Positions 11,526 to 30,415 of a DNA stretch of 64,000 nt are shown in pieces. A program made the position numbers and the translations under genes. This stretch comes from a virus (taxonomy: Duplodnaviria; Caudoviricetes). The first letter of the stretch is position 1; each line of letters starts with the position of its first letter. The DNA lies in the IMG/VR virus record IMGVR_UViG_3300010270_000394, positions 1 to 64,000 of that record; one strand, 5' to 3'. Below the pieces are notes generated by a model that was not told where the DNA came from, did not search any database, and saw nothing but the letters and a program-made list of their open reading frames with translations.

Positions 11526-11542
11526 TTTAGTTGTAATCCTCC

Positions 11543-12486
11543 TTATGTCGGTACACCGATATAATCTAAAACTTCTCTCATGCCAAGTCCACCGGAGTTC
11601 CAAGGTTTCATGCAGTATTCATAGAGTTGCGGATGTGTTTCTTTCAAACGCTGAAATCGGTTTGGTTCTTTTTCAAGATGACAGCCAAAACCACAAAATA
11701 CGCATCCAGTTCTATCACAATCTGTTGTTTTCCATTTATCTTTTTCATCTTTTATGATTTCTCCGTAAACAGAAGCATATGGTATTTTATACTTTTGTAA
11801 GTATTCCAATACATCTTGCTCCGTCCAAAAAGACATTGGTTTGGATGATGGATTCTTTGCATCGAACGAATTGCATCCGTAATTCAGCCATTGCGATCTG
11901 CGTTGCTTGCTTTCCGATGCCATTGTTCCGATAATCGGTTTAAGTCCGCTTTCCCGTTCAAACTTATGCAAGGGTTTTTTCTTCATGATATTACAACATC
12001 TTGAGGATACTTTGAATGGTGCTTCTGTCAAATACGACCATTGCTGACAATTAAATTCAGAAGGCTTTCCGTTATCCTTTTTGATATTTCCGTGCAACAG
12101 ATTCCAACGCAATGTTCCGGGATTTGCGTATTCAATCACATTGGCAATCTGCTTACTGACAAGCGGGTATCCATATGTTTCAATGACTTTACGGAAACTC
12201 ATTTCCGGTTTAAGAACTATTACATTTTCTCTTGATTTTGCAAACTGTCTGACTTCCGGATATTCCAAACCGGTATCTACAAATACAGCAGGAGCATTTG
12301 GATAAACTTTTCGTACTAAATCAAGAAGTACAGTTGAGTCTTTTCCTCCTGAAAATGACACAAAGACTTGCCCCCCCACCTTTGCCCGAACTCAATAATT
12401 CGAGTGAGAGAAACGCGAATTTTCTTATCCAAAGTCCATGCTTGCATCATTTTCAAATCCTCTGCGGTAAACTTCGCGCTGCTCAT
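11543..12486 (-). CDS. PAPS-reductase-family protein 1, frameshifted at G7 tract (G8 restores)
   Basis: AGGAGG-ATG at 12486 reads MSSAKF...QRWGG; one extra G joins it to QVFVSFSGGKDS...CC...RTGCVFC. Confidence 0.85.
12371..12377 (-). repeat. Poly-G tract TG7CAA (out of frame)
   Basis: C7 on plus strand at the frameshift point. Confidence 0.9.
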
Positions 12487-12878
12487 GTTTCCTCCTTTTG
12501 ATTATAATGTTTTATTCTGATCAGCAGTCGATATTTACGCGCGGTTTCGATCATATGCTTTGTTCCGGAACTCTTTCCGTCCCAAAAGGCAACCAGCGCG
12601 TCAGCGTTTTGCGCCATTTCCAGATTGCGGACAAATCCGGCAGATTTTTTGTAGGTATTCCAATCTGCCGGATAATAACGAATTTCATATCCGCGTTCCT
12701 CGGCGTATCTTGCACCGAGAGTATCCGCACCTCGCGCCGCTCCACAGATAACGACAACTTTGTAAGTGATCCTTGACAAAAAATAATCTATAGACCGCTT
12801 CAAATAATCGTAGTCATTAAAGTCTCGTCCACCGGCAATAATGACGCGAAATTCTCTATTCTTAGTTTCTGTGTTCAT
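12483..12878 (-). CDS. SLOG/YspA-like (DUF2493) protein
   Basis: IAGGRDF, GAARGAD, AGFVRN, FWDGKSSGT. Confidence 0.85.
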   Translation of the reverse strand: MNTETKNREFRVIIAGGRDFNDYDYLKRSIDYFLSRITYKVVVICGAARGADTLGARYAEERGYEIRYYPADWNTYKKSAGFVRNLEMAQNADALVAFWDGKSSGTKHMIETARKYRLLIRIKHYNQKEET

Positions 12879-12879
12879 T

Positions 12880-13137
12880 TTACGACATCAGAACAGAAAG
12901 TCCGATGAACTCTCCAATGCCACATTCTTTGATTCTGTTATTTGTGCGTTCAACGTTGCAGATGTGTAAAATTGTATTTCTTTTTATGGAGTTGACAAAC
13001 AGATTCATCTTGGCATCTACGCAATATTCACCGACTGTTTCCGATGTTTCGGGAATATCCGGCAATTCTTCCGTAACCTCTCCATAAAACAACTCGCCGC
13101 AGTTTTTACATCGGTATTTTGTCAGATAATTACTCAT
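12880..13137 (-). CDS. Small zinc-ribbon hypothetical protein
   Basis: YRCKNCG...HIC; GGAGGTG RBS. Confidence 0.65.
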   Translation of the reverse strand: MSNYLTKYRCKNCGELFYGEVTEELPDIPETSETVGEYCVDAKMNLFVNSIKRNTILHICNVERTNNRIKECGIGEFIGLSVLMS

Positions 13138-13271
13138 GTTTCACCTCCACATGGTATTCGGCGCATCCAAGCAACAAATACTCTTCAACGGTCATTGTGC
13201 AATCAACGTATTCTTCGCGTTCATCATCATAAAGAGATACTTTGATCTCCTGATCCAGAGCAATGTATCGT

Positions 13272-16200
13272 TTATCCGTCATTCTCTTTTTCACCCTCTC
13301 GAATGAACGACCACTTTTTTAAGATTGCTTCTTTGTCGTTATTGTCCTGCTGCCAATCGCCATTGTCGTCTTTTGACCAACGACCTTCATTGGAAACCTC
13401 AATGGTTTTGATGATGTCACCAACTTGGATCGGAGCTTCATCATACTTCTTGCGGCGTACTTTGACAGTTTCCGTTGATCCGTCACTCAAGCGATAAAGC
13501 GTCAATTTCGGATTTTTGTACTTGCATTCATACTCTTGCACGAAAGCATAGTCAGGAGACATATCATCCATAATGGTCTTGACATATCCGATGTTGTCCA
13601 GCTCATACTTGAGGCGCATTCCAAACGGAATATCAACGTCCTCTAAGTCCTCCCAAATCTCTTTGAGCGCTGCGTTGTAGTCAAAATTACGATAGAGTTT
13701 GTCCGTCTCGTCGGAATATTTCATGATGTACTTTGCAAATTCTTCTGGAATCTTATCTTTACTGAACTGCGTCCGTTCATAAAGCTGATCCAAAATTTCA
13801 ACAAAGCGTTTGATCTTTCCAATGGTTGCAAAGTCATCAAAATATCCGATCTCAATAAGTGTATTGACTTTCGCGCTATTCAAACTCTTTTTCTTTTTCA
13901 GGTCTTTCCAGAGTTTATAAAAACTGACGTATTTTTTCTGTCCCAGCGCATAGAGATCGTTCGCGCAGCTCTGCGACAAGCCTTTGATAGACAAAAGCGA
14001 CGGATAAATCACGCCATTTTCCGGATCGGCAATAAATTTGCGATTGTCCAGTCCAAAACGATAATCTCCCTCGCGGATTCCAAAGGCACGGTTCATTTCC
14101 TGCTTGAGTTCCGCAACCTTGTCCTTTTTGCCTTTGTCGGAGTATGTCTGCATGAGGACTTCGTAGAATTCATACGGATAATGCGCCTTGAGATAGGCAT
14201 TATAGAGACTATCGAGCGCCATACAGTAAGCGTGTGCGCTGTTGAAACCATATCCGCAAGAATCTGAAATGATTTGCCAAACTCGCGCCGCATCATCCGC
14301 TGCCTTATCTGCCGGTGTTCCATCTTTCATGATTTGATCGCGGAATCCGGTGATAAAACGCTCCTTGAGAGGACGAACCTTTTCCGGATGCTTCTTGGCA
14401 ATTGCCTTGATAATGCCGTAGCATTCATCAATGGGAAATCCGGCATAGTTCAGTGTGTTCATGGTTTGCTCCTGATAAAGAATGAACGACTGCGGCATTT
14501 CTTCCGTCTGCAAAATCTTATCAAAAGCCGGAATATCATAAGAAAAGTTCTCGCGGTTTTCCAGTTTCGAGTACATGGACTTGAACGCCGGACGAATCGC
14601 CGCGATGAACGCAGACAACTCGGAAACATTCTTTGGCTTGTACTTGGTAACTTTGCGTGTGGTAGAAGTTTTTTCACACTGATTGACACCGATGGTATAT
14701 CCTTTTGCGTAAATGTCCCAAGTTTTCTGATCATTTCTGACCAAGTTCATCAATTCATTAACGGTATAGTGTTTGATTCCGATTCGTTTGAAAATCAAAT
14801 CATTTAACAAAACAACGTCAACTTTGAGAATATCGTTCTTTAGAAACTTGTAATTTTCCGCAATCGCTCCGTCAATAACTGCGGTGATGTATTCTTTCTT
14901 GGTTGTTTCACTTTTGCATTTGATCAAGCCGATTTCCTCACGAATACTGCCGCTATACAATAGATAAGCGCACGGCGCTTTTTTCTTATCCATGATGATG
15001 CCCTGATACTTTTGGCTTGCGTCAATGTAGGAACGGTATTCTTCGTCTACATAATCATAGACGCTGATTTCCTCGCGTTCGTCATCATCTGCGTATTTCA
15101 TGGCTTCGTCGTAGCGCTCAATCTGACTGGAAATTGTGTTGGCAAGGTCAAAATCCATGTTCTGCGACCGCGCATAGAGCTTAAACGCGCTCTTTTTCTT
15201 GCACGTTCCAAACGCAATCATCGGTACGGCGTGATCCGCGCCGAGAATGGTTTGCTGCGCTTCTGCGGCAATGTCGGGAGTTCCCCAATTCAAATCAATA
15301 TCTGGTAATGATTTAGTTTCAAGAATTCTGCTTTTACTGATGAATCTCTCTGGATAGAGCTTGATCGGACTTTGGAAACGGTCAACTTTAGAAAACCCAA
15401 GCAACGTGTTTGTAAAATATCCGACTGCGCTGCCACGTCCGGAATCAGTCAAAACGCCGCCGTTTTCCAATGCAAGTTTAACGATATAGTAGTCAATCAA
15501 AAAGTAATCGCTCATGTTGGTATCTTTGATGACTTGTACCTCGTTTTTGACACCTGAAAAGTATTCATTGTATTCTGCCGGATCAACATTTTTGGTATAA
15601 CCCTTGAACAGACGAGAAATGAGCTTGCTGTATTCCTTGTTGCGCTCTTCCTGCGTCAATTTCGGGAGCAATACGCCGTCAACCGTATGCTTTCCGTCAA
15701 AAAGCGTTGGAAGTTTGATGTCTTTTGTAAAAATCGGATTTGGCGTTCCGTCAGGCAGCGTTTCATATCCTTCAAAATCAAGCAATAAATCCGTGTTATC
15801 CATTGCACGTTGAATCTGCTTTTTTGTGAAAATTCCCTGATCCAAAAATCGCTGCATGGTCGTTTCATCATCCGGATAGTCCATATACCAATTATCTTCA
15901 TCCTCGTAATGGACGTTTTTGGCGGCGAGAATGTAATCTCGTTCCTTGGACTGCTCCGGATAGATATAATGACTGTCCATGCCGACTATCATTTCAATGT
16001 CATACTTTTCGGAGAGTTCCAGAATATGACGGTTGAGTTCTTTTTGCTTGTCCGTGTTGTGATACTGGATTTCCAAAAAGAAGTTCTCTTTGAAATGATT
16101 TCGCAGCTTGAGAACAATGTCGTCAATGTCATCATAGCGCCAGAACGCAACGCAAGCCGTTGTGATCATCACATCATCAGGCGGGAGTGAAAGCAAGAGT

Positions 16201-16553
16201 TCCAGATCGACACGCGGACGGAAATAATAGCCATCCTCATTGGCAACGGAAAGAACACGGTTGATTGCCCTTCGTCCCATTTCGTTTTTCGCCAACATGA
16301 TTACATGACAATTGGAACGGTCTTTTTCATGACGATCACGAACCCAATATGCTTCTGCTCCAAAGATAAATTTGAGATCATACTTTTTTGCGAGTTCAAA
16401 TGTTTCAAAATAATAGCCTTGCCATCCGTGTTCTACACTGGATATTAATTTATGTCCGAGTTCCACGGCTCGTTTTGCGTAGTCCTCATTGACAGCAGCG
16501 GAATCAGCAATGTAGATATTGCTGTAACTTGTGTGACGATGATAATTTTGCGT
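13272..16553 (-). CDS. dnaE: DNA polymerase III alpha subunit (DnaE-type), probable ACG start
   Basis: PHP domain (NYHRH..., EHG, DSHY), GRGSA, PDIDL, YGFNSAHA; PHP N-terminus lies upstream of the ORF-track start. Confidence 0.93.
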   Translation of the reverse strand, partial: TQNYHRHTSYSNIYIADSAAVNEDYAKRAVELGHKLISSVEHGWQGYYFETFELAKKYDLKFIFGAEAYWVRDRHEKDRSNCHVIMLAKNEMGRRAINRVLSVANEDGYYFRPRVDLELLLSLPPDDVMITTACVAFWRYDDIDDIVLKLRNHFKENFFLEIQYHNTDKQKELNRHILELSEKYDIEMIVGMDSHYIYPEQSKERDYILAAKNVHYEDEDNWYMDYPDDETTMQRFLDQGIFTKKQIQRAMDNTDLLLDFEGYETLPDGTPNPIFTKDIKLPTLFDGKHTVDGVLLPKLTQEERNKEYSKLISRLFKGYTKNVDPAEYNEYFSGVKNEVQVIKDTNMSDYFLIDYYIVKLALENGGVLTDSGRGSAVGYFTNTLLGFSKVDRFQSPIKLYPERFISKSRILETKSLPDIDLNWGTPDIAAEAQQTILGADHAVPMIAFGTCKKKSAFKLYARSQNMDFDLANTISSQIERYDEAMKYADDDEREEISVYDYVDEEYRSYIDASQKYQGIIMDKKKAPCAYLLYSGSIREEIGLIKCKSETTKKEYITAVIDGAIAENYKFLKNDILKVDVVLLNDLIFKRIGIKHYTVNELMNLVRNDQKTWDIYAKGYTIGVNQCEKTSTTRKVTKYKPKNVSELSAFIAAIRPAFKSMYSKLENRENFSYDIPAFDKILQTEEMPQSFILYQEQTMNTLNYAGFPIDECYGIIKAIAKKHPEKVRPLKERFITGFRDQIMKDGTPADKAADDAARVWQIISDSCGYGFNSAHAYCMALDSLYNAYLKAHYPYEFYEVLMQTYSDKGKKDKVAELKQEMNRAFGIREGDYRFGLDNRKFIADPENGVIYPSLLSIKGLSQSCANDLYALGQKKYVSFYKLWKDLKKKKSLNSAKVNTLIEIGYFDDFATIGKIKRFVEILDQLYERTQFSKDKIPEEFAKYIMKYSDETDKLYRNFDYNAALKEIWEDLEDVDIPFGMRLKYELDNIGYVKTIMDDMSPDYAFVQEYECKYKNPKLTLYRLSDGSTETVKVRRKKYDEAPIQVGDIIKTIEVSNEGRWSKDDNGDWQQDNNDKEAILKKWSFIREGEKENDG

Positions 16554-16588
16554 AAGATCACCCTCTTACTTGTAATTTATCTTATTTA

Positions 16589-17737
16589 TCAAAACAAATC
16601 TGCATCCTCGTCTTTGTCGCGCTTACGAAGTTCCCATTGATCGTTGAAACGCTTCAGATGAATACAGGAATTACGATAATTACAAAGATTATTGCAGAAA
16701 AACGTGTCCTCTGCCTCGTTTCCTGCGCCGTTGATTCGCGTAAACTCGCGCGGTTTCCATTGACTTTCATCGTTGGGATCAAGCCCCTCAAATCTATCTG
16801 CCATTGCATTTAGATAAGCAATTGTCTCATTCACCAACTCGTCAGAAAGCTCATATTCGCGCACATACGGCTTGATCGTATAGTTGTTTCTCACTTGTTC
16901 CGGCAAAACATCTAAACTGTTCTTCGCCAGTGCATCTTTGAGCATAATTTCAATGTCGATCTCGTCATATCCGAGTTCTTCCAAATCACGTTCCAGATGG
17001 GTTTTCAGTTCAGAAATGAGCTTACCACGATTGACGACCTTTACAATCTCGTCCTTTTTCTTGGAATTCGCGCGTTTATAGCCCATGAACCTGACTTCAC
17101 AATACTTGAGCATAATCCACGCAACGCGGCGTACATCAAAGCCCTCCGCTCTCTTAGCGAGTGCATAGAAAATAAGCTGCCGTCCGTGGTGAAGCAATTC
17201 ATCTTTCTTGAAATTGGTTGAGGTTTTCCAGTCGTAAATGTCAATTGAACCGTCAGTATTTTCGCGGATCAAGTCGATATATCCCTGCACATAGCGGTCA
17301 GTTTCCTTTCCTTCCTCGTCAATAGACTTCGGCAAAGGGTAGATGACCAATTCTTCCGTGCGGAACTTTCCGTTTGGCGGCGTAAAATTGGAGCAGAAAT
17401 GCTTCATGTCAGCTACCCAATTATCACGGATGGAATCACCACCCTTAAAATCCTTGGGAAAATGAATGTCGAGCATATCGAGGTCAAGCAATTCCTCATT
17501 GAGTGTATCCGGCAGCTCGTCAGCAGTTGCTTCACCATTGATGATCTGCTCCAACTTGTCATGAATCTTTGTACCAAGAATGCCGTAAATTCCATTTTGT
17601 CCTTTGTTGTGTAAAATGTAACTCTGATACGCCTCATATAAGCATTCCTCAATGGTATTGCATTTAGAAATGCTGTAAACGTGCTTTCCGGATTTGAATA
17701 ATGCCTGAATGCGTTCGTCTTTATCTCTTTTTGCCAT
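16589..17737 (-). CDS. PD-(D/E)xK (RecB/Cas4-like) exonuclease
   Basis: SIS...C, GTKIH, GYIDL, DWKTS, QLIFY, C-terminal Cys cluster. Confidence 0.85.
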   Translation of the reverse strand: MAKRDKDERIQALFKSGKHVYSISKCNTIEECLYEAYQSYILHNKGQNGIYGILGTKIHDKLEQIINGEATADELPDTLNEELLDLDMLDIHFPKDFKGGDSIRDNWVADMKHFCSNFTPPNGKFRTEELVIYPLPKSIDEEGKETDRYVQGYIDLIRENTDGSIDIYDWKTSTNFKKDELLHHGRQLIFYALAKRAEGFDVRRVAWIMLKYCEVRFMGYKRANSKKKDEIVKVVNRGKLISELKTHLERDLEELGYDEIDIEIMLKDALAKNSLDVLPEQVRNNYTIKPYVREYELSDELVNETIAYLNAMADRFEGLDPNDESQWKPREFTRINGAGNEAEDTFFCNNLCNYRNSCIHLKRFNDQWELRKRDKDEDADLF

Positions 17738-17761
17738 AATCGTCCTTCCTTGTAATTTGAT

Positions 17762-18790
17762 TTATTTCAGCCAAACAACGTGCTTTTTGATCAGTTCTGC
17801 AAACGCTTCTCTGCCGAGATCAGACGGGCTTGCCTTGCTGCCCTTGGGAAGTATCTCATTTTCTCTGTCAAATACATAACCGACCTGGTTATGAAATACA
17901 GAGTTATTCAGCCGCAGTTTTTCTGCTTGTTCTCTGACTTTTTCTTCTTCCAAGCCCTCGTCATACGCAAGGATGATCTTGTTCGTCATAAGAGCCTTCA
18001 GATGCTTTGCCTGAATGTCGCTTACATCGCATCCACACGTCGCAAGTCCAATGTTGCTTCCCATTGAGCGGAGCTGCATAACAAACTTTTCCGATTCTCC
18101 AACAACTACGATGTTCTTTTGCTGGATTGCCTCGTAATTCCTATGATAACCATAGAGCGTATAGGTGCGAGAGCATGGAATCAACGGAAGCCAGCGTTCT
18201 TCTTTGGCACATTTAGAATCGTTCAAGCGTCCCATAATGCCGCAGAGTTTTCCGTCAAGTGTATATTCCGGAACGGTGATCCGGAGTGTTTCAAGATCAA
18301 AACCGACATTGAAATATTCCTGTGATTGAAAATCAATACCGTCACGAAAAAACATAAGATTGTACTTGTTCGCGTATTCATCCAAAATGGATTCGTCGTA
18401 AGTTTGCATAGAGAATTCCGGTTCTTGTATTTCTTTCATCAAACCTTTGTAGAATCCGGCAAAAGGATAACGAATTTTTTTGTTGAACTGCGATTTTTCC
18501 AAACCAAGTTCATCCGCGATATAGGTTAAAGACTCTCGGAATGAACAATCGCGTGTCGTCATAACGAGAGTATAAATGTTGCCGTGCGTATTGATCGAAA
18601 ATCCGTCAAATTTCAAAGTATCCAGCTTCAGGCGCATTGCCGTTGGATTGTGACCATCCTCTCTGCTGAACCGCAGTTCGTTTTTGCCTTGCCGGTAACT
18701 GATTTCCGTATAGCCCATAGATTCAAGGAGGGCGATACAGTCATCCACATTATTTGACAGATAATTCGTCAAAGATAACGCATTGATAAT
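17762..18790 (-). CDS. DNA primase (TOPRIM), probable ATT start
   Basis: RITVP...GIMGR, LYG, VGESEK, AYDEG; follows helicase. Confidence 0.85.
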   Translation of the reverse strand: MINALSLTNYLSNNVDDCIALLESMGYTEISYRQGKNELRFSREDGHNPTAMRLKLDTLKFDGFSINTHGNIYTLVMTTRDCSFRESLTYIADELGLEKSQFNKKIRYPFAGFYKGLMKEIQEPEFSMQTYDESILDEYANKYNLMFFRDGIDFQSQEYFNVGFDLETLRITVPEYTLDGKLCGIMGRLNDSKCAKEERWLPLIPCSRTYTLYGYHRNYEAIQQKNIVVVGESEKFVMQLRSMGSNIGLATCGCDVSDIQAKHLKALMTNKIILAYDEGLEEEKVREQAEKLRLNNSVFHNQVGYVFDRENEILPKGSKASPSDLGREAFAELIKKHVVWLK

Positions 18791-18811
18791 GAGTATCGCC
18801 CTCCTATTGAT

Positions 18812-20287
18812 TTATTTATGCTCATTGAATACGGTGCAGTAACCGATCTCGCGCCACCGGTTATAACGACCGTTGAATTCATACAGCACTTGGATTTTGT
18901 CGTCGTCATTTCTTGTTTTGTCCAAAAATACGACGATGTATTTTTTGTCACGATCCAACTGGATTTGCTTGCGGACATTGGTGTACTTTCCAGAGTCATC
19001 CTTGGTCAATTGATACGGTTTGACATCAAATTTATCTCCGTTAAACTCGTCGTCCCAAAGCTGCCGAGCATAGACCATTTCGGAAAATACTTCCTTGATC
19101 TGTTTTGCATTTGATAGGCAGCTTGCGTCCAAATATCGCTTGTTGAGCGTGTGAAGAGCAAGCTGATAAGTACAAATCAAAGAAATGTTCTCACGGCTGG
19201 TAATCTGGAACAGTTTTCGACTATGAATTAAAAGCTGCTGCCACATTGCTTCGTCAATCTCGTCCTCCGACTTCATTGTGTCAAACATGATGACCTGATA
19301 CCCCAACTTAGAGAGCTTTTTTATGATACGTTTGACTTTACTCATATCCGTATCAAAAATCTTCACGAATTTAATGTTTCCATACTTTTCCTGTGAGATT
19401 TTCTTTGCTTTCCGCAACATTTCCCACTGTTCATCCGTGAATTTTCCAATCTTTATCTTCTTGCGCGTCAAGCCCCAATAATCCAGTTCTTGTGTGAGAA
19501 TGTGAACCAGCAAGAGCTGTTTAAAATCTTTGGAACGCTGTTCGTTGCTGATTACAGCGCATTTTACACCATCCTCAGTCATTGGAAGGATCATATTTTC
19601 AAACGTAAACGACGTTTTACCTACGCCTGAGTAACCGCCAAACATATACATATCTCCAAGCGGCGTTCCAAGCGTCAGGTAATTCAGTATGGGACAATGC
19701 GCCGCGTAACTGATTCCCTGCGTCGATCCTTCGTCACACTCTGCCAAGAATTTATCGTCGATCTCAAGCGTTTCAATCTCAATGTCATGCGTGTTTTTGA
19801 TACTGACGCTGTTGAGAATATAGTCGTAATAGTCGTAGACTTCCTGATTCGTCATTTTGGCGAATTTTTCCATATTCTCGACAACATTGAATCCTTTATC
19901 GTGGAGCGTCATAAGCGTATTGAACTTTGCGATTTTATCATAGTACGCATCCACATTGTCCGGATTGACAAGAGAACACAATTCACTGACCGTCGCGTAA
20001 CCGCCCAGCTCGTCAAAATGCTTTTTGACAGTTGGTTTGTTCTCCAAAAACGTATAAATCGTGACATTATCAAATGATCTGAACCCTTGATTGTGCATCT
20101 GACGACCAAGATTGAAATAGAAAACACCGTCATCCGTTTTTAAGGTTTGATCGTCGCCGACGTTAATCCGAGAAAAATCGTCAAACAAATCAGGCTGTTT
20201 CCAAAGGCAGAATATAAACGTCGCTTCCGCGCTGTCTCGTCCTTTGGTCAACTCTTCCGGATAATCCTTGAGTTCCATGACGATCAT
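18812..20287 (-). CDS. dnaB: Replicative DnaB-like helicase
   Basis: GYSGVGKT, SNEQ, FDTMK, YQL, KTRND motifs. Confidence 0.9.
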   Translation of the reverse strand: MIVMELKDYPEELTKGRDSAEATFIFCLWKQPDLFDDFSRINVGDDQTLKTDDGVFYFNLGRQMHNQGFRSFDNVTIYTFLENKPTVKKHFDELGGYATVSELCSLVNPDNVDAYYDKIAKFNTLMTLHDKGFNVVENMEKFAKMTNQEVYDYYDYILNSVSIKNTHDIEIETLEIDDKFLAECDEGSTQGISYAAHCPILNYLTLGTPLGDMYMFGGYSGVGKTSFTFENMILPMTEDGVKCAVISNEQRSKDFKQLLLVHILTQELDYWGLTRKKIKIGKFTDEQWEMLRKAKKISQEKYGNIKFVKIFDTDMSKVKRIIKKLSKLGYQVIMFDTMKSEDEIDEAMWQQLLIHSRKLFQITSRENISLICTYQLALHTLNKRYLDASCLSNAKQIKEVFSEMVYARQLWDDEFNGDKFDVKPYQLTKDDSGKYTNVRKQIQLDRDKKYIVVFLDKTRNDDDKIQVLYEFNGRYNRWREIGYCTVFNEHK

Positions 20288-20292
20288 CCTCC

Positions 20293-20799: not shown

Positions 20800-20812
20800 A
20801 TCCGACCTCCAA

Positions 20813-21952: not shown

Positions 21953-21958
21953 AATTGA

Positions 21959-22159
21959 TCAGTCCTCCTTTTTTTCCGTGTTGTTCGATTTGTGCTTACG
22001 CGCGGCTCTCGCGGCTTTCTTCTGGATAAGCTCGTTACGGTGCATCTTGTCATAACGATGATGACGATTCCAGAAAAACAGATTGCGACGCTGCTCACGT
22101 CTGCCCGGTTCGGTGATTGTCTTGATCCACTTCATTGTCAAATCACTCTTAGAAATCAT
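21959..22159 (-). CDS. Small basic hypothetical protein
   Basis: GAGG RBS, fills the gap between neighbours. Confidence 0.5.
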   Translation of the reverse strand: MISKSDLTMKWIKTITEPGRREQRRNLFFWNRHHRYDKMHRNELIQKKAARAARKHKSNNTEKKED

Positions 22160-22478
22160 CGTCTACCTCCCCATTGCCGTTCTGTGTATTGGTTTGAGTC
22201 GTATCCGTCGTGTCGTTGTCAACGCGGCTGTTCCAGATTCCCATAGCTTCCTCAAATCCATTCTTGATGAACTTGGGATAACCATTTTCCAGAACAAGAC
22301 GGCTTTCACGCTTAATTGAGATTCCGCACTTGGAGCAACCGATCTCATAACTCGCACAAAATTCTCCATTACCCTTATGTGCATTGGAAAACTCGCGGAA
22401 ATACGCTTCCTGTCCGCAGAACGGACAGGCTTTCAAATCAGGCTTTGGATTGATCATTTTCCTCATTCCTTTCATCAA
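22149..22478 (-). CDS. Lar-like restriction alleviation zinc-finger protein
   Basis: LKACPFCG...CSKCG...WNSR pattern. Confidence 0.75.
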   Translation of the reverse strand: MMKGMRKMINPKPDLKACPFCGQEAYFREFSNAHKGNGEFCASYEIGCSKCGISIKRESRLVLENGYPKFIKNGFEEAMGIWNSRVDNDTTDTTQTNTQNGNGEVDDDF

Positions 22479-23662
22479 AACAAATCTTCATCGTCAACGC
22501 CGTCATTCTTTTCATCCTCGTCAAACGGCGGCTCGTCCTCGTCAGCGTCCTCGTCCTCTTTCTTGCTCTTGGTGGACTTGGCAGACTTCTTTTCCTCAGA
22601 CTTCTTGGACTTGCTCTTGGCTTCCTCAAGCGTCTCGTCCATCGGCGGATCGTAAATGCGCTCGTCAAAGTCCTCCTGATCCTCGTCTGAGAGTTCCAGA
22701 ACACCGTCCGCGTAGTCGCCTTCGAGCTTCGGATCAAACAAACGGAACTCGTCAATACGATCTCCGAGAATACCGCCGCGCGGTTTGAAATCATCCAGCG
22801 TCTTGATTCCAAGTTCGATCTGCTCCTTCTGTGCGTCAGTCAGCATAGATTCATCAAAATCCGCTTCCTCCGCGCCGCGCAGGAGAACCATTTCCCAAGG
22901 GATGTGAACCATCTTCTTGTTTTTGACCTTGAGATACTTGAGCTTATAGTCAAGCAGCTTCTTGTGGCGCTCATTATCAAGATCATACTTGGCAGCGGAA
23001 AAGACGGTCTGGATCGGAACGAATTTCCTGCCCTCGTCCTTGTTGATATACTGCTCAATATACGCATCGAGCGTCATCTTCTTGGTATCGTCAAAGTCCA
23101 CGTCATCAAGGCTCTTCTTGTTATAGAAAAGTTCTGCCGTAATCATCAAACGGCTCTTGCGATCCTCCGGCGCGGCAAACACGTTCTGAATACGGAACTT
23201 GGAATAATACTGCTTCTTCTTGGCGTACCAATCACGGGTAAAGTTGCCGGTAACAACAACACGACCGTCATACTTGGGAAGCCATTCCTTGAGGTGCTTG
23301 ATCATGTCATACGCGGTAATAAACTCCTGACGACCGCCAAAGTCCTCACCGAGATCGACAATGTACTTGCGGTAGTTAGCAACGGCAGAAATATTATCCT
23401 CGTCAAAACGATCATCCCAATCGACATCCATCTTATTGTTGTCGGAATCAAAAGTCTTGATGACTTCCTGCTCACTGTCAAACGCTTCAACGAACGCCAT
23501 GTTGTTGTCGCTCTCCTTAACGCCGAACGTCATGGAGATCATCTTTTTCTTCTTTTTACCGTCCTCCTTGGTAAACTCCTTAAAGAACGGACGCTTTGCA
23601 TCCTTCTTCTCCTTGGGAATGACCGGAGTACCGACAAAATTGAATCTTGCTGTGTAACTCAT
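22475..23662 (-). CDS. Putative ssDNA-binding protein
   Basis: Long acidic tail ending DDEDLF, position upstream of the Sak4-like ATPase. Confidence 0.65.
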   Translation of the reverse strand: MSYTARFNFVGTPVIPKEKKDAKRPFFKEFTKEDGKKKKKMISMTFGVKESDNNMAFVEAFDSEQEVIKTFDSDNNKMDVDWDDRFDEDNISAVANYRKYIVDLGEDFGGRQEFITAYDMIKHLKEWLPKYDGRVVVTGNFTRDWYAKKKQYYSKFRIQNVFAAPEDRKSRLMITAELFYNKKSLDDVDFDDTKKMTLDAYIEQYINKDEGRKFVPIQTVFSAAKYDLDNERHKKLLDYKLKYLKVKNKKMVHIPWEMVLLRGAEEADFDESMLTDAQKEQIELGIKTLDDFKPRGGILGDRIDEFRLFDPKLEGDYADGVLELSDEDQEDFDERIYDPPMDETLEEAKSKSKKSEEKKSAKSTKSKKEDEDADEDEPPFDEDEKNDGVDDEDLF

Positions 23663-23681
23663 AATCTTTTCATCCTTTCTG

Positions 23682-24254
23682 TTACTTTTTTACTGCATCA
23701 AAATCGAGTTCCAAAAACTTGCGCGAGGCAAGATAATCACAAAGATGAACAAATTTTTGAATCTTCGTGCGAGGCTTCGGAAGCGTCACCTTAGAATAAT
23801 TTGCAGTACACCATTGTCCCATATGCGTTGCAATCGCGTGGTAAACGATCTGCTCCTGCTCGTCGGTCAGCAAACCGCCGCATTCAATGTTGCATTTCTT
23901 GATGAAATTCGCGCCAAGAAGCGGATGCTCGAAAACCGTATGCTGTCCCTTGCCGTTTCCCTGCTTGAGTCCGTCATGCGGAACAATCGCGCACAAAATC
24001 AAATCCTGTTCCTCTTCCGTAAAATCGAACATTTCCAGATTAAATAACTCATGCGCGATAATAGCTGCCGCTTCGGTATGGCGCACCAATCCACCATCGC
24101 CAAGTGCGTATGAAGGATGATATTTGCCAGAGGACGAAGCGGGTACAACGAAAAAATACTCCGGCAGATTGTCAATGACATAGCGCAGGAACTTCTTGAT
24201 CTTTTCGTCGTGCATCCAGTCCAGAACAAAATCAAAACTATGTCGATCAGCCAT
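23682..24254 (-). CDS. HD-domain phosphohydrolase
   Basis: PASSSGKYH, GGLVRHT, PHD, HP, HMG, HLCD. Confidence 0.85.
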   Translation of the reverse strand: MADRHSFDFVLDWMHDEKIKKFLRYVIDNLPEYFFVVPASSSGKYHPSYALGDGGLVRHTEAAAIIAHELFNLEMFDFTEEEQDLILCAIVPHDGLKQGNGKGQHTVFEHPLLGANFIKKCNIECGGLLTDEQEQIVYHAIATHMGQWCTANYSKVTLPKPRTKIQKFVHLCDYLASRKFLELDFDAVKK

Positions 24255-24648
24255 TGTTTTCACCCTCATTGACAGTTTCGGCGGGAGCATCGGTCTTAGG
24301 CTCGTTCTGCTCCGCAGTTTCCTCGTTAATTGTCTGCTGCGCGGTCTGTTTCTCGTCAAATTCCTTTTGCTTATTGATATGAGCGAGGACGGTTTGACGC
24401 AGGACAGATAATTGACGCTGCGGGTTCAATTTGCTGTTCTTGTTCAGCGTTTCCATGACTATGCCGCACATTGCCTTCATGCCAGCGGAAATGCCAAGAA
24501 CATAGGCGCGTTTCATCGTGGCGTTGAGAACCTTTTCCATTTCGGACTCCGGCTGCGCGGGATTCGCCGGAGTTTCGGGAGTTGCATTCTGCTTGAGCGC
24601 TTCATCAACTTCATTCTGATCCGTTTCCAGTTCAATGATCTTTGCCAT
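24247..24648 (-). CDS. Hypothetical protein
   Basis: GAAGG RBS, preceded by the repeated motif. Confidence 0.65.
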   Translation of the reverse strand: MAKIIELETDQNEVDEALKQNATPETPANPAQPESEMEKVLNATMKRAYVLGISAGMKAMCGIVMETLNKNSKLNPQRQLSVLRQTVLAHINKQKEFDEKQTAQQTINEETAEQNEPKTDAPAETVNEGENNG

Positions 24649-24681
24649 TCGTTTACCTTCTTTCTTTACTTGTAATTATTG

Positions 24682-25565
24682 TTATAAACCCATGAAAATG
24701 TGTTTTATAACCTCTTTTGTCCATCCGTTGCCGCAGAGAGAACGCCGTACATTGTCACTAAAACCTTCTGTAAAGCCATCCGGCAGTGTTTGAAGTCTTT
24801 CGTACTCAACAGGCGTAAGTTTACGAATTCTTCCAGAATCCAAAACTTTTTTCTCCTGATAACCGCCATTTACACAAGTCAGCGTCGCGCATTTGAACGC
24901 CGGATTATACACTCGCTTGAGCATATCATGTGTGTTGACTTGCAACGTGGCGATTACTTTCTTATCGTCTCCATGAAAGATAAATGGTTTGTTGTAGTAA
25001 TCCTTTTCAGGAGCATTATCCACCATAATATCTTTCAAAACAGTGCTGTTGTACTTTGGCAGCGGAGCTATCGGTATATTTGTCCAATACAGACGTTCAC
25101 GATCTTGAGCTGAGAAGAGGTTACTGTTGATTAGAACAGGATTGCCCCCCCAAGTTCAGCGGTGATCACGTTTTCATCCTGTTTGCTCTTTGGAACGACG
25201 TTCTCCAACATATACCAGCGCGGTTTGATTTCATGAACGGCTCTCGCGTACTCAAAGAAAATCGCAGATTTTCCATTTAGTCCGGAGCAAATCGCGTCAT
25301 TTTCCTGCCGCACGACGGAAAGACTTTGGCAGCACGTTCCAGCAATGACAAGATCAAAACCGCGAAATTGCGAAAAATCCGCTCCAAATACATCGCCGTG
25401 ATGAACCACTTCCGGAAAATGCTTTTTACTCAACGCAATTGCCGGTTCATAGATTTCGTATGTATGGTATTCGTCAACGGGGATTCTAAGTTCCTTGAGA
25501 GCAAACAGACCGGTTTCCAGACCGCCGCAAATTGAGAGAACTTTCAATCCCATATCGTCACTCAA
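24682..25565 (-). CDS. C5-cytosine DNA methyltransferase 1, frameshifted at G7 tract
   Basis: Motif I (SICGG), IV (GTCCQ), VI (ENV); after +1 G (or -2 G): NPVLINSNLFSAQDRERLYW, RKLTPVEYERLQ, GNGW. Confidence 0.88.
25145..25151 (-). repeat. Poly-G tract TG7CAA (out of frame)
   Basis: C7 on plus strand at the frameshift point. Confidence 0.9.
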
Positions 25566-25974
25566 CCTCTGAACTGCTCAGAATTGCATACTTACGGTTA
25601 TCTCCGTCGAAAATGAACTTTTCGATGTTATTCATGAATTCAAAAACGTTGTCAACAGCACGAAGTTCGTTGCCTACGATCTCATAAACATCAATGCCGT
25701 GATTCAACGCAAACAGAACTTCATCAAAAACTCCATGACCAATCATTCCAGATACAGTTGAGAAAATCAGCACGTCACAAGTATTGATCGTCTCAAATGC
25801 GGTTTCCATGATGACAGATTCCGGAGCATCCTGCGGAAGAGAAATATGCGGATTGATAATTGTCAAATCGTCAACAGTTGAAAACGCTGACGCAATCAAA
25901 CTCAGTTCCCATTCCTCAATTTTTGTTCCGTACTTCCATCAATGGTGTGAATAAAACACCTTCATACGTTCCAT
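25558..25974 (-). pseudogene. Nucleoside 2-deoxyribosyltransferase-like gene with in-frame TGA at 25939-25941
   Basis: MERMKVFYSHH*WKYGTKIEEWEL continues in frame into IINP...CDVLIF...GHGVFDEV. Confidence 0.6.
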
Positions 25975-25988
25975 ATTGCATCATCCTT

Positions 25989-27277
25989 TCAAAATAATTT
26001 ACAGCCTTGATCTTTGAATTCTTGAATCTGTTTATCCCATTTTTCCTGATCCCATCCAAATTCACGCATCAAGCACTTTTTACATTTGAATTTTTCCGTG
26101 TTGCGCCCAAACATTTTCATGTTCATTGCCAGTGTATTTTTGTCTTTGATTTTCAGCGGTTGACGGCGATAATTCAGACATCCATTTGCACAATACTTGT
26201 TAAAATACTTATGTGCAACTTCTAAATCCAAACCATTGTACTGCGCGTATTCCGCAATGACTTCCTCTGTCGGTTCTGCGCGGTAAACGCCGCCTGTCCA
26301 TGCTTTATTGACGTATTCTGCAATCGTGCAGTTCATAATCAGCCATTTATTGTTGCGGATGAAATCATTTCGCACGATCTCCCGCCAGCGGTTAAATAAA
26401 TATGGATACCAATAGCGATCCAGAACCCAAGTGTATTTTGTGTAGTTCGGACAGGCGATCCCGCAGCCTACGCGATCATATCCGTAACGGTATTTATCGT
26501 TGATCTCGATTCCTTCCGAGAGAATATAAAGCCAAACGTCGAGTTCCGTCCATTTGCGAATCGGCAAAACAGCAATCCAATCACGATTCTCCCACTTGTC
26601 GTTTTTCCAAATGTCTTGATAGTTGGAACGCCGCGCGGATTCCTCGTTTCGCATTCCAAACAGGAACAGCAGCTTTTCATCAGCAGAAAAATACTCAATT
26701 GTCGGTGATTCCTTGTAGTAAGTACAACAGAACCGATTCAAGCGGCTTGGAAGCGTTTGATACCGCTGGATATAGTTATAAAATCCACCGTATTTTGGAT
26801 TTGGAAGGATGTGTTTGAAATCATTTCTTGCCGCCATCCGATTACTTTCTTTAACATCAAGCGTTGTTACATTGAAATATGTTTCAAACGTCAGTCCTGC
26901 CTTTTTTGCAAGATTGAGAACAACCATGCTGTCCTTTCCGGTGGAGTTTGTGTTGATAATTCTACGATCTGTCTGTAATCCGATCTGACGCAATAAAGAA
27001 ATGCTTTCTTGCTCAATTTCACTTAAATGCTCACGGTTTCTCCGAATTGTATCCTTCCATGTTTCAAAATCGGTTTCGTCTTTGTTCTGTTTGTGTTTTT
27101 TAATCGTAACATTCAAATCATCATCAACGAAGATTCGGAATAATGAAACGATTTGCCCCCCAGCTTAAAGGCTTTTACCAAATTATTGTCCATCCAGAAT
27201 GTTTCTTCACGAAACCATGATGTATCACAACCGTTGTCATTCAGGAATCGGATGTACTCAGGAAAAATGGGCTGCAT
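25989..27277 (-). CDS. PAPS-reductase-family protein 2, frameshifted at G6 tract (G7 restores)
   Basis: GGAGG-ATG at 27277 (MQPIFPEY...AFKLGG); downstream STGKDS, RFCC, GMRNEESARR, RVGCGIACP. Confidence 0.82.
27156..27161 (-). repeat. Poly-G tract TG6CAA (out of frame)
   Basis: C6 on plus strand at the frameshift point. Confidence 0.85.
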
Positions 27278-27285
27278 AATGCCTC

Positions 27286-27570
27286 CTAATACAAATCTTC
27301 GCTGTAAAGTTCATGTTCTCCGTGTTCTGCCTTATACGCACAATTTGTAACTGAAAGTTGACCACAATTCATTGCGTGATCAAACGCATCCTCTCTATTC
27401 AAAAATTCTCCGGTATGCGTTATAAATCCTTCCGTGACGTGTTTCTTGTAATTTGTGTTATTACACAAATTGAAAAGAATCTCATAACCGCTTCCATGAC
27501 GAAAACACGGCACAATCGTTTCTTTGAAATCTTTACATTGTTCAATCTTCAATGCTGCACAAATGATCAT
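27286..27570 (-). CDS. Phage hypothetical protein
   Basis: IICAA...RH...GFIT..GEFLNREDA...LYSEDLY pattern. Confidence 0.75.
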   Translation of the reverse strand: MIICAALKIEQCKDFKETIVPCFRHGSGYEILFNLCNNTNYKKHVTEGFITHTGEFLNREDAFDHAMNCGQLSVTNCAYKAEHGEHELYSEDLY

Positions 27571-27769
27571 TGGTCATCATCCTGTCGTGATTTTTCAATA
27601 ATACAAACACCAGTTTGCTGTGCTGTGATCGTAGGACAAATCATGCCTTCCTCTTGCACTCGTCCTCGTCTTGTTTGACTGTTTGGATACGACAAATCAA
27701 CTGCCCCCCCACTTTACAGCGGATGTAACCTTTCTTTGTCGCTTGTTTGACATACACATATTCATCCAT
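27567..27769 (-). CDS. Stand-alone C5-MTase target-recognition-like peptide, frameshifted at G7
   Basis: KQATKKGYIRCKVGG plus 1 G gives AVDLSYPNSQTRRGRVQ...CPTITAQ; restored stop overlaps next ATG. Confidence 0.72.
27704..27710 (-). repeat. Poly-G tract TG7CAG (out of frame)
   Basis: C7 on plus strand. Confidence 0.85.
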
Positions 27770-28082
27770 GCGCTTCACCATCTGTCTGAAGTTTTTCCAG
27801 CGCTTTTTCAAATGCTCCGATTCCGGAAAAGAACGATCCAACAACCATGTTCTCAAACAAGTACGGCATTGCGTCGTATAGGTTTTTCATGATTTGTTCC
27901 AGAACATCAACAACAATGCTGTTTCCTGCTTGTTTGTAGAGTTGCGAATCGCTTCTGTCTCTTCCGTTAAAAAGCTGCCGGTTCATCGCCTGTTTTGCAT
28001 TTTCAAAATCTTTATCGTCAAATCCCATAAAACGCCAGCATTCCTTTGGAGTCAATCTGCGGACTCGGATATTACTCACCAT
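27762..28082 (-). CDS. C5-MTase 2 small subunit carrying motifs IX, X and I
   Basis: RRLTPKECWRFMGF, YKQAGNSIVV, then SFFSGIGAFE at the C-terminus; AAAGGTGG RBS. Confidence 0.85.
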   Translation of the reverse strand: MVSNIRVRRLTPKECWRFMGFDDKDFENAKQAMNRQLFNGRDRSDSQLYKQAGNSIVVDVLEQIMKNLYDAMPYLFENMVVGSFFSGIGAFEKALEKLQTDGEAHG

Positions 28083-28992
28083 GCGTTCCACCTTTCGTTT
28101 CGTATTCAATTACGCCTGTCATCTGCTGGTTTCCAAAACCTTTGTAATCTCTTGCAAGTAAAGCAAGCGACGTATTGGTATAACCGTCAAATTTACTTCC
28201 CTTGTTGCTCAATTTAGCGCCCACCTTCGACCGACACCAAATCCCATGTGTGTCTGTCTGTCGATCCCCGTCCACCGGATCGGATCGTATTTCCGACTTT
28301 ACGGCTTGCGCTGGGGGGGCAAATCCTTCAGATACAAGTTGCGTTATTTTTTCATCAGAAATGTAATATTTTTCGTCAACTTCATCTTCCAATAAATCAG
28401 GAAGTTCATGTATCAAAGGAATCGGTTCTGGAAATTTGAATTTTTTGTTGTCTAATTCTTTTTTGATGATGACGCAATAAATACGCTCACGATTTTGCGG
28501 AATACCATAGTCTTTCGCATTGAGAACTTTCCAATAAACGTTGTATCCATAATCTTCCAATTCTTCCACGAACAGATCAAACATTGGTTTGAACCTTACA
28601 GATACGATGTTCTTGACGTTCTCATAAATTGCAAATCTCGGTTGCTTTTCTCTTAGGAAGCGTAACCATTCAACCAAGAGCGATGAACGAGTTTTCTCAA
28701 GGTTGCCCCCCCCGCATTTAGGGCATTTGTCTCTTTGCGAGTAATGCACTTCCAGCGGATTATAGGTATGACCACACCGTTTGCACGTCCACATCGCGCC
28801 CTTCTGTTTTCCGGCAACGGAAAAATCCTGACAAGGGCTGCCGCCGAACATGGTGTTGAAATCAGGGACTTCCTTTTCATTCACTTTGGTAATATCTCCG
28901 ATATTCAGTGAAGGATCGACGTGATGCACGGCAGCATAGCTTACCGCAGCACTTTCATCAAACTCGCAAAACAAAGCAGTATTGAAATCCAT
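28072..28992 (-). CDS. C5-MTase 2 large subunit (motifs II-VIII, zinc-ribbon insertion, variable region)
   Basis: FCEFD, GDI, GGSPCQDFS, ENV, PQNRER; no motif I at the N-terminus. Confidence 0.9.
   Translation of the reverse strand: MDFNTALFCEFDESAAVSYAAVHHVDPSLNIGDITKVNEKEVPDFNTMFGGSPCQDFSVAGKQKGAMWTCKRCGHTYNPLEVHYSQRDKCPKCGGGNLEKTRSSLLVEWLRFLREKQPRFAIYENVKNIVSVRFKPMFDLFVEELEDYGYNVYWKVLNAKDYGIPQNRERIYCVIIKKELDNKKFKFPEPIPLIHELPDLLEDEVDEKYYISDEKITQLVSEGFAPPAQAVKSEIRSDPVDGDRQTDTHGIWCRSKVGAKLSNKGSKFDGYTNTSLALLARDYKGFGNQQMTGVIEYETKGGTHGE
28313..28319 (+). repeat. TG7CAA tract in opposite orientation (C7 in coding strand) at start of the variable region
   Basis: ctgggggggcaaa on plus strand. Confidence 0.85.
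28706..28713 (-). repeat. Poly-G tract G8CAA (in frame)
   Basis: Encodes CGGGN. Confidence 0.85.
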
Positions 28993-29015
28993 GTATATGT
29001 ACCTTTCTTTTTGAT

Positions 29016-29135
29016 TTACGCCGGAACGGGATAATACTGCGGAGAACAGCACGTCAGGATCATGACAGCAACCGCAAGAATCGTCGCAATACAAATCCAG
29101 CGCAATGTTTGTTTCTTAACTGTCAAAGTGTTCAT
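29016..29135 (-). CDS. 39 aa signal-peptide/lipoprotein-like peptide
   Basis: AAGGAG RBS; MNTLTVKKQTLRWICIATILAVAVMILTCCSPQYYPVPA. Confidence 0.5.
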   Translation of the reverse strand: MNTLTVKKQTLRWICIATILAVAVMILTCCSPQYYPVPA

Positions 29136-29153
29136 AACACACTCCTTGTAATT

Positions 29154-29882
29154 TTACTTATGTGGAAAAATGTATAGTTGTTCCATAATATCGAGACGAG
29201 AAGCGTTGTCGAGCGTCCGTTTAACGGGCTGCGACCAAATGGATTTCCAGCTCTCCGGCGCTGTCTGTTCCGATACCAACACAATATTATTCTTAGATTG
29301 TTCTTCAGCCCATTTCCAAAACTCACGGTGATTGAATTGATCCTGATACCCTGTCGTATTTTGATACGGAATATCACAATAGATTACGCTTCCGCTTATA
29401 TTTGGATCGAGCTGCCGGTAATCTGCCTCGCCGAAATGAATGTCATGCAAGGCTGGTATTTGCGCAAGTAGATTTCGTTTTGCCTCGTCATAATAGTTGC
29501 GTTTCGTTCCGATCTTTGTTGTAATTGTTCCGGCTCTGCCGCCGAAAAACTTTCCATTGTACGAGGCAAGGAATCCAACAGCACCTATGTACCAATCCGG
29601 AAATCTGCCGTTTTGCTCCTGATATGATTTCCGAACGGCTGCGTATTCTTCTTTGCTGATTTCTTCAGGCAACGTATTGACTTGATCTATGTGATTAAAC
29701 AATTCGATCAGATAATGATTGATGTCGTATCCAAATTTTTGCTCACATGAAATTTTATCAATTACGTTTGCCCCCCCAACAAACGGCTCAATGTAACGCT
29801 TGGCTTGCGTTTCGTCTATGTAAGACTGGATGATCGGTACGATGTGCTTTGCAATACGGGACTTTGAACCGACGTACTTAAT
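29154..29882 (-). CDS. Dam-family (D12 class) adenine methyltransferase, probable ATT start, in-frame G7 tract
   Basis: KYVGSK, EPFVGGAN, YCDIPY, VSE; GAGGTG RBS before ATT. Confidence 0.88.
   Translation of the reverse strand: MKYVGSKSRIAKHIVPIIQSYIDETQAKRYIEPFVGGANVIDKISCEQKFGYDINHYLIELFNHIDQVNTLPEEISKEEYAAVRKSYQEQNGRFPDWYIGAVGFLASYNGKFFGGRAGTITTKIGTKRNYYDEAKRNLLAQIPALHDIHFGEADYRQLDPNISGSVIYCDIPYQNTTGYQDQFNHREFWKWAEEQSKNNIVLVSEQTAPESWKSIWSQPVKRTLDNASRLDIMEQLYIFPHK
29771..29777 (-). repeat. Poly-G tract TG7CAA (in frame)
   Basis: Encodes VGGA of the SAM-binding motif. Confidence 0.88.
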
Positions 29883-29888
29883 ATAGCA

Positions 29889-30388
29889 TCACCTCAATTT
29901 GATCCAGAATCCCAAGTCAGAGAGGGATTTGATTTCGTTGTCATAGTTTTGTTCCGTGAAAACGACGACTTCACTTGGAAATGGAGCTGCGTCTTTGTCG
30001 CCAAATTTCAGCCGTCCTTTCACGAAACAGATGTATTTTGCGTTTGGAAAAATGAATCTGTGTTGTGCTTTGGTATCCGTCCGTGCCGGAATCAACATGA
30101 CGGTTGTGATGTGATTTTTCCGACTTTCCTCACAGCACTTTTCAATCCAATCTTCCTGTCCGGAATGCTCTTTTGTTCTTTTGCCATAAGGAGGATTACA
30201 AAAAACTACTTGCCCCCCCAAGTTTTTGACAAACCATCATCCGATTCGGTATAATACTGTTCGCATTTATGGTTTGTCTCGTCAGCGCACGGATCAAGCG
30301 TGAATCGGAACGCTCCGTCAAGACGATTGAAAAACGCTCTCGGAGTCGCCCAATTATTATTGCCCGTGCTGAGTAAAACAGCGTCCAT
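29889..30388 (-). CDS. Phage N6-adenine methyltransferase, frameshifted at G7 tract
   Basis: WATP, FTLDPCA, DGLSKTWGG plus 1 G gives QVVFCNPPYG, LIPARTDT, GRLKF, APFPS. Confidence 0.9.
30213..30219 (-). repeat. Poly-G tract TG7CAA (out of frame)
   Basis: C7 on plus strand at the frameshift point. Confidence 0.9.
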
Positions 30389-30415
30389 GCAATTCTCCTT
30401 TTCTTGTAATTGTTG

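Follow-up and report, generated by a model that had tools for sequence, protein, structure and literature searches.

Why does a phage carry runs of G inside its DNA-modification genes, and why are several of those genes exactly one nucleotide short of a complete reading frame? The question is raised by a stretch of viral DNA from IMG/VR, positions 1–64,000 (here, the window) of the 100,981-bp record IMGVR_UViG_3300010270_000394 (Duplodnaviria; Caudoviricetes). We propose that its runs, which share the form Y-G(6–11)-CAR (Y, C or T; R, A or G) with those of related phages, are in all probability hypermutable contingency loci that switch phage DNA-modification genes.

A count of G/C runs of at least 6 nt in the window returned precisely the eight listed in a first-pass annotation of this DNA, each inside coding sequence. 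Read on the G strand, the runs are followed by CAA in seven cases and by CAG in one, and are preceded by T in seven and by C in one, also as previously described; the T holds for the window, but relatives have T or C at this position. The rest of the record has just two more runs, G6 at 73885 and at 80957, both without a CA flank. Markov models (orders 1 and 3) fitted to the record predict 0.65–0.95 runs of at least 7 nt in 101 kb, whereas seven are observed, and all seven fall in the 5.8% of the record made up by six modification genes (P about 2e-9). The proposed enrichment in modification genes is therefore borne out over the whole record: tracts are 7–10 times commoner than expected and are restricted to one functional class. 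The statement that all eight lie in methyltransferase or “PAPS-reductase” genes needs an amendment. All are in modification loci, but the tract at 27704 is in a free-standing module that resembles a target-recognition domain (TRD) rather than in a full methylase.

Three-frame translation supports the earlier view that five genes are broken at the tract and that each is repaired by one added G, since +1 G at 12371, 25145, 27156, 27704 and 30213 joins two open halves. We refer to the joined state as ON and to the broken state as OFF; all tracts are on the minus strand except where noted. The G7 tract at 12371..12377 (T..CAA) is OFF, and G8 would join 41 upstream codons to the PP-loop of a PAPS_reduct-family gene (..WGGQVFVSFSGGKDS). 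The G7 tract at 25145..25151 (T..CAA) in C5 cytosine methylase “b” is OFF, with ON at G8 (..ELGGGNPVLINS..). The G6 tract at 27156..27161 (T..CAA), in the N-terminal extension of a second PAPS_reduct-family gene, is OFF, with ON at G7. The G7 tract at 27704..27710 (T..CAG) is in a small open reading frame (ORF) that in the G8 frame reads ..VGGAVDLSYPNSQTRRGRV.., resembling the TRD of a C5 methylase. The G7 tract at 30213..30219 (T..CAA), in a PF05869 Dam methylase gene, is OFF, with ON at G8 (..TWGGQVVFCNPPY). Thus, WGGQVFVSFSGGKDS, ELGGGNPVLINS and TWGGQVVFCNPPY, all textbook motifs, are restored by +1 G. Two tracts are in frame as sequenced, again as previously noted: the G8 tract at 28706..28713 (C..CAA), in the Zn-ribbon insert of C5 methylase “a” (CPKCGGGN), and the G7 tract at 29771..29777 (T..CAA), in the S-adenosylmethionine-binding motif (FVGGAN) of a D12-class adenine methylase. 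The remaining tract, at 28313..28319 (T..CAA), is G7 on the plus strand, so that the coding strand has C7; it is where the variable region of methylase “a” begins. The ON lengths are borne out by intact homologues and, at 12371, 25145 and 27704, by +1 alleles in other samples.

Do the tracts vary in length between samples? At least part of the stretch is contained in 19 of the 21 public runs listed, which come from 11 studies, mostly of bovine-gut metagenomes; no RNA run is among the public runs listed as containing it. We compared the window across positions 11500–30500 (19 kb) with assembled contigs of four bovine-gut runs, X1–X4. Ten of the 12 indels listed (of 15) fall on tracts, and they go in both directions. 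At 12371, the length is 7 in the window and X1 and 8 in X2; at 25145, it is 8 in X1 and 7 in the window and the three other contigs. At 27156, the window has 6, X1 has 5 and X2 has 8, and the G5 and G8 alleles are also OFF. At both 27704 and 28313, the window has 7, and X1, X2 and X4 have 8. At 28706, the window and X3 have 8, X1 has 9 and X2 has 7. At 29771, the window has 7, X1 and X3 have 8, and X2 and X4 have 6. Since three other samples carry the +1 allele at 28313, this tract is probably also a frame selector; the alternative frame beyond it (C8), which might bring in a second recognition module, had no match in phage records.

Tract lengths also vary among relatives. Using the D12 methylase as query, we searched IMG/VR and metagenome contigs, including human-gut and other assemblies, and obtained a clade of 23 contigs: 21 metagenome contigs (L020–L040) and two IMG/VR relatives, with 67–77% protein identity in this enzyme and contigs of up to about 145 kb. 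All 23 have between one and eight G6–G11 tracts at homologous sites, and all except the shortest have at least three, whereas 59 more distant loci (L041–L099) have almost none. We grouped 140 tracts into homologous sites by their flanks and analysed the frame of each. The Dam PF05869 site is G7 in 13 contigs, G8 in seven, G9 in two and G11 in one; the D12 site ranges from G6 to G11 among the 23 contigs, and the site homologous to 25145 in C5 methylase “b” from G6 to G8 among 16. This comparison had been named as a check in the first-pass annotation, and near-identical contigs differ at five tracts. Over 6,888 bp, the relative G1 and contig L034 have no mismatches, five tract indels and no other indels; L032 and L034 have one mismatch and five tract indels; and G1 and L032 have two mismatches and five tract indels over 10,256 bp. 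None of these pairs has an indel outside tracts, and none of the 7–9 A/T runs of at least 6 nt per pair is altered. Tract mutation is far faster than base substitution.

Could these lengths be base-calling or consensus mistakes in genes that are really intact? Five window genes are each exactly one G short, as expected from systematic under-calling, and several related contigs have low coverage (2–5x by name). However, many independent studies and assemblers give the same sites, with lengths from G6 to G11, and X2, a 57x contig, differs from the window at eight tracts, being longer at some and shorter at others. Differences of up to 4 bases (G7 versus G11) are atypical of consensus errors. Moreover, a general homopolymer sequencing artefact is ruled out by the A/T runs and the remaining sequence, which are unchanged in near-identical contigs. 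We therefore consider sequencing or assembly error extremely unlikely as an explanation for the tracts.

A second possibility is that the tracts are neutral mutational hot spots in dispensable accessory genes, such that each frameshift begins the loss of a gene. In line with this, about half of the alleles are OFF, and certain genes are OFF in all contigs seen. Nonetheless, the tract genes are under strong purifying selection, OFF alleles included. The median ratio of nonsynonymous to synonymous substitution rates (dN/dS) for four tract genes across the clade is 0.07–0.10 (C5 “b” and D12, 0.07; PAPS-like gene 2 and Dam PF05869, 0.09), and it is likewise 0.07–0.10 for pairs in which both alleles are OFF. 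Both ORF halves are open in every contig. The same tract sites are kept across lineages that are just 65–78% identical in DNA. Outgroup phages encode the EPF(V/C)GG(A/C/L)N motif with a mixture of GGT, GGA and GGC codons and have no tract, which indicates that the run of the clade was built by synonymous changes. Together with the excess of tracts over expectation in a single functional class, these observations make neutral decay very improbable. Low dN/dS, open halves and a synonymous origin fit reversible contingency loci rather than pseudogenes, and they lend indirect support to the maintenance of the genes and to the apparent reversibility of switching.

Both ON and OFF lengths occur at homologous sites, and length change toggles the reading frame. 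Nearly every contig has its own ON/OFF pattern, with the Dam PF05869 gene ON in 8 of 23 contigs, D12 in 14 of 23, the PAPS-like gene in 6 of 16 and C5 in 10 of 16. It might be argued that the frame of the DNA matters little, because ribosomal frameshifting or RNA-polymerase slippage yields the full-length protein from any allele. Homopolymer runs can support transcriptional slippage, and G7 is the modal length irrespective of which length is in frame. Programmed frameshifts have also been proposed for a reverse transcriptase encoded in three frames in a gut phage with a similar gene neighbourhood (Benler et al., PMC8008677). Against such recoding, the DNA itself varies and sets the frame, and at three sites the run, flanked in the same way, is antisense to the gene. 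Furthermore, +1 and −1 OFF states occur at the same site, and a single fixed recoding event cannot rescue both. Programmed recoding is thus a very unlikely account of the tracts.

The tracts therefore have the features of contingency loci: a repeat inside a reading frame, length change well above background, ON/OFF switching by frameshift and, by indirect evidence, maintenance of the gene. Nowhere among the samples or relatives were they fixed in frame without length variation. The suggestion that homopolymer tracts switch modification genes to give combinatorial states is supported by the variable lengths, the differing ON/OFF patterns and the purifying selection on genes that are OFF. We envisage that slippage at the DNA level, presumably during replication, would add or drop single Gs, each change moving one modification gene into or out of frame. 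The switched set would comprise two adenine methylases, the C5 methylases together with their recognition modules, and BrxP-like enzymes of the PP-loop type. If about eight such switches act independently, a lineage would steadily yield genomes with different sets of active modification genes, and the DNA emerging from each cell would bear different marks. Some progeny could then escape restriction enzymes that cut unmodified DNA, and others could escape Type IV or DpnI-like cutting of modified DNA. Bet-hedging against restriction and modification-dependent nucleases is a plausible selective reason, given the analogy with the agt gene of phage T2 (PMC12633550).

Several points weigh against this interpretation. 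The population data are consensus contigs, and any effect of tract state on the methylome is a prediction. Overall, about 42% of methylase and PAPS-like alleles are ON, close to the 33% expected if length is unselected, so that selection for switching is not evident from the consensus states on their own. The window, X1 and X2 all have PAPS-like gene 2 in the OFF state, and one PAPS-like gene of the relatives is OFF in all five contigs; such genes could be needed only rarely. Finally, a simple slippage model has no place for the CAR flank.

What is the significance of the flank? Across the clade, CAR follows 6–8% of G3–G4 runs and none of 16 G5 runs, versus 74% of runs of at least 6 nt. Among independent sites of at least G7, it is found at 14 of 19 (P about 2e-12 relative to the short-run background). 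All three codon phases of CAR are represented. Following Gly-Gly, CAR may itself encode Gln; in a second phase it gives Ala, invariably GCA, and the first base (A or G) of the next codon; and in the third it gives Gly, invariably GGC, and the first two bases (AA or AG) of the next codon. Because it is translated in these three ways, we rejected an amino-acid cause. At one homologous C5 site, one lineage has LGG-Q-I-P with ON at G7 and another has LGG-G-N-P with ON at G8, and the DNA keeps G(n)CAA throughout. Only at the D12 site is GCA AAY ancestral. Retention of CAR across codon phases implies a feature of the DNA. This agrees with the argument first made from 28313, where the same flank is on the opposite strand; three sites in all have the motif on the antisense strand, and their tracts vary as much as the others.

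The related suggestion that the flank makes a slippage hotspot is speculative. The flank is conserved and is a DNA-level feature, but tracts without CAR, namely the site in a Pnkp-RNA-ligase gene of the relatives and a G9/G10-CTT site, also vary, and CAR is hence unnecessary for slippage. No longer motif was convincing beyond Y-G(n)-CAR at the 14 independent sites. In a scan of IMG/VR, TT-G9-CAA was present in 113 stretches, as against 34 for the permuted TT-G9-AAC. Other tracts in the CAA-seeded loci are CA-flanked in 35 of 121 cases, as compared with 1 of 40 in control-seeded loci. Unrelated contigs have other 3ʹ flanks (TA at 9 of 13 tracts in L148 and TT at 4 of 5 in L193), and since these poly-G lineages favour TA or TT, the flank looks lineage-specific.

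The occurrence of CAR in all codon phases, the co-occurrence of CA-flanked tracts within genomes and the different flanks of other lineages raise the idea that the flank acts in cis as a signal to some lineage-specific factor, which would direct or tune slippage at particular G runs; this would amount to a targeted mutator of anti-restriction genes rather than passive repeat instability. We regard this as a speculative and rather doubtful proposal. Candidates for such a factor are a divergent primase of the phage, its DnaE-type polymerase and a motif-binding nuclease. Two more specific ideas gained little support. An antisense promoter, with TTGCCC as the −35 box and the run as a variable spacer, has no −10 box at the proper distance by inspection. 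The primase of phage SP6 recognizes 5ʹ-GCA-3ʹ, and a primer might be laid on the run, but the equal variability of antisense tracts disfavours a strand-specific model, and we retain the idea only as part of the above proposal. A 349-amino-acid ORF at 17765–18811, adjoining a DnaB-like helicase gene, matches a CHC2 zinc finger only weakly (E 2.6e-4 and 0.015, below the cut-off). It has no DnaG core, no Prim-Pol match and no relative in PDB; it may be a divergent primase.

How do these tracts compare with known switches? The closest parallel is the A-run in T2 agt, a contingency locus in a DNA-modification gene that has been studied experimentally (Gomez, Barrick and Waters 2025, bioRxiv preprint, PMC12633550). 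Its slippage is frequent and reversible and switches glucosylation, and progeny escape either TgvAB, given as modification-dependent, or McrBC, given as modification-sensitive (PMC12633550). The T2/T4 loci, like those described here, are homopolymers within phage DNA-modification genes. However, those of T2 are A-runs in an AT-rich genome that occur in all gene classes without enrichment, whereas those of the present clade are rare G-runs, built by synonymous changes, found only in modification genes, up to about eight in number and with a shared flank. The logic of agt has been demonstrated by experiment; the clade is known from sequence alone. In Campylobacter, Fletchervirus phages have hypermutable polyG tracts (Sorensen et al. 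2021, Cell Rep 35:109214, as cited in PMC12823448 and PMC10877375). According to those citations, several tracts per genome create phenotypic diversity, as we propose here, but, going by the cited titles, they gate receptor-binding genes and so adsorption host range rather than DNA modification.

Phasevarions also depend on simple-sequence repeats in methylase genes, the repeat-driven mod/hsd methylases of Haemophilus, Neisseria, Helicobacter, Campylobacter and Streptococcus suis, and switch genome-wide methylation ON and OFF (PMC5909438, PMC4889913). They are parts of chromosomal restriction-modification systems that rewire host expression, whereas the phage genes are orphan methylases and BrxP-like enzymes, many per genome, and are presumably protective. 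We do not class the array as a phasevarion. We found no phage methylase array of this kind in a full-text literature search or in a 2026 review of prokaryotic methylases (PMC13076061). The combination that is distinctive here is of selected, synonymous-built G tracts in one functional class, about eight per genome, BrxP-like enzymes included, with a conserved, lineage-specific flank.

If our interpretation is correct, this is a clade of gut and rumen phages of roughly 110–145 kb in which nearly every DNA-modification gene has its own mutational switch. Whereas phage methylases are usually viewed as a fixed means of evading restriction, this array could continually regenerate up to about 2^8 enzyme genotypes. 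Should the methylome follow the genotype, the array would be a viral counterpart of bacterial phase-variable restriction-modification, and it would help to explain the persistence of one lineage among hosts whose restriction systems make opposing demands. Accordingly, methylase genes that appear “frameshifted” in phage metagenomes should not be annotated as pseudogenes, and host range and methylation-based host linking for such phages would depend on tract state. Co-switching with methylases also points to a role in DNA modification or counter-defence for the “PAPS reductase” genes that are common in phages and are usually annotated as auxiliary genes of sulfur metabolism. The lineage-specific flank provides a handle on whether sequence can direct repeat instability.

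The genes that carry the tracts in the window are all on the minus strand. PAPS_reduct-family gene 1 (11543..12501), a BrxP/SspD-like PP-loop gene, is in two frames as sequenced (PF01507, 3e-22; phrog_424), and its PADLOC matches are BrxP (1e-13) and SspD (8e-9). Gene 2 (25989..27310; PF01507, 1e-21) is BrxP-like with an N-terminal extension, and its G1 homologue is intact across the tract, reading ..KAFITGGQVV... The label “PAPS reductase” given to these genes in the first-pass annotation is not supported. Their best scores against cysH, CysD and APS reductase are 28–49 bits, below the curated cut-offs of 154–400 in every case. They are thus not assigned to CysH-type sulfur assimilation, and the membership that can be shown is of the PF01507 superfamily domain and phrog_424. 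The best defence-library match of the PAPS-like proteins is BrxP of type 4 BREX (E 4e-26 for the G1 orthologue of gene 2, 1e-22 and 1e-13), a similarity that covers the PAPS-reductase domain alone (positions 75–359 of 779). Similarity to BrxP and to SspD of the Ssp phosphorothioation system would fit a role in DNA modification.

In C5 methylase “b” (24682..25577), the tract splits an N-terminal piece, with motifs up to ENV, from a C-terminal piece, and PF00145 is found on both. The D12-class N6-adenine methylase (29154..29888; PF02086, 4.5e-16) is ON. The PF05869 Dam-type adenine methylase (29889..30415) is in two frames, with profile positions 9–59 and 61–124 on the two pieces. C5 methylase “a” (27762..28992) is split into two chains. 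Chain 1 (28072–28992) begins past motif I and has the Zn-ribbon insert after its PCQ motif; chain 2 (27762–28082), whose Shine-Dalgarno sequence and ATG overlap the chain 1 stop, has motifs IX and X and then motif I (FFSGIGAFE). Membership of the C5 class is indicated by PF00145 (4.5e-48) and by motifs I, IV (PCQ), VI (ENV), VIII (QxRxR), IX and X in the translation, distributed over the two chains with motif I last. The core of methylase “a” aligns with the multispecific and split C5 methylases of Firmicutes phages (phi3T/SPbeta type), in which recognition modules are separable, and a C5 methylase of Streptococcus phage Javan129 is split in much the same way. Unlike the phi3T/SPbeta-type enzymes, methylase “a” is permuted (motif I past motif X), has a Zn-ribbon insert and has G/C tracts at module borders. 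The free-standing TRD-like mini-gene is at 27570–27886, after methylase “a”, and its G8-frame peptide matches genes annotated as C5 methylases in Streptococcus and Staphylococcus phages (E 5e-3 and 7e-3).

Between the ends of the tract cluster is a replication module with genes for a DnaE-type polymerase, a PD-(D/E)XK nuclease, the DnaB-like helicase and an AAA_24 protein. A small ORF within the cluster (22152–22487) has a weak match to the restriction-alleviation protein Lar (E 3e-5, below the cut-off) and could be anti-restriction. Near gene 1, 382 bases of the window (12743–13126) are exchanged for 359 unrelated bases in X1 and X2, and this cassette adjoins a YspA/SLOG-family gene (12486–12887). 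A megablast of the cluster against GenBank phages gave no match, and a GTDB genome scan with the D12 methylase alignment gave no relative. A Bacillota host is hinted at only by Shine-Dalgarno-like sites and by the best methylase matches, which are to phages of Bacillus and Streptococcus.

In the relatives, tracts of the same type are also found in DPPY, NPPY and MT-A70 methylases, in further PAPS-like genes, one of which has the tract encoding the PP-loop SGGADS itself, and in a small coiled-coil protein. Their Pnkp-RNA-ligase gene has a G6/G7 tract with a TTG or CTT flank (L009, G1 positions 763–769; L010, 323–328) and its reading frame is broken in 2 of 18 contigs; at the corresponding place in the window (31.8 kb) there is no tract. 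This gene resembles the T4 Pnkp/Rnl1 tRNA-repair pair, which counters host anticodon nucleases. In L022, a G7 run (3388–3394; G6 in L027) that precedes the start of a MazF/PemK-like toxin gene by about 8 nt is probably a ribosome-binding site and not a coding tract.

Two unrelated contigs have arrays of their own. L148 (5745–12679; GC 52%) has 14 G7–G10 tracts within 7 kb, most of which have TAT or TAA on the 3ʹ side. A PAPS_reduct-family gene contains the first two, and many others are where there is no ORF of at least 70 amino acids. L208 (7078–10805), an IMG/VR contig, has tandem small paralogues of Gp10_C, a baseplate/receptor-binding head domain, each with G7–G9 and then CAA or CTT. This array is a receptor-binding counterpart of the methylase array, nearer to the Fletchervirus case as the cited titles present it. 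In the window, the ORF adjoining Pnkp-Rnl (32729–33526) carries DUF6273 (E 1.5e-13), and, with its several methylases, tRNA ligase and hypervariable gene, the region is laid out much like that of Quimbyvirus as described by Benler et al. (PMC8008677).

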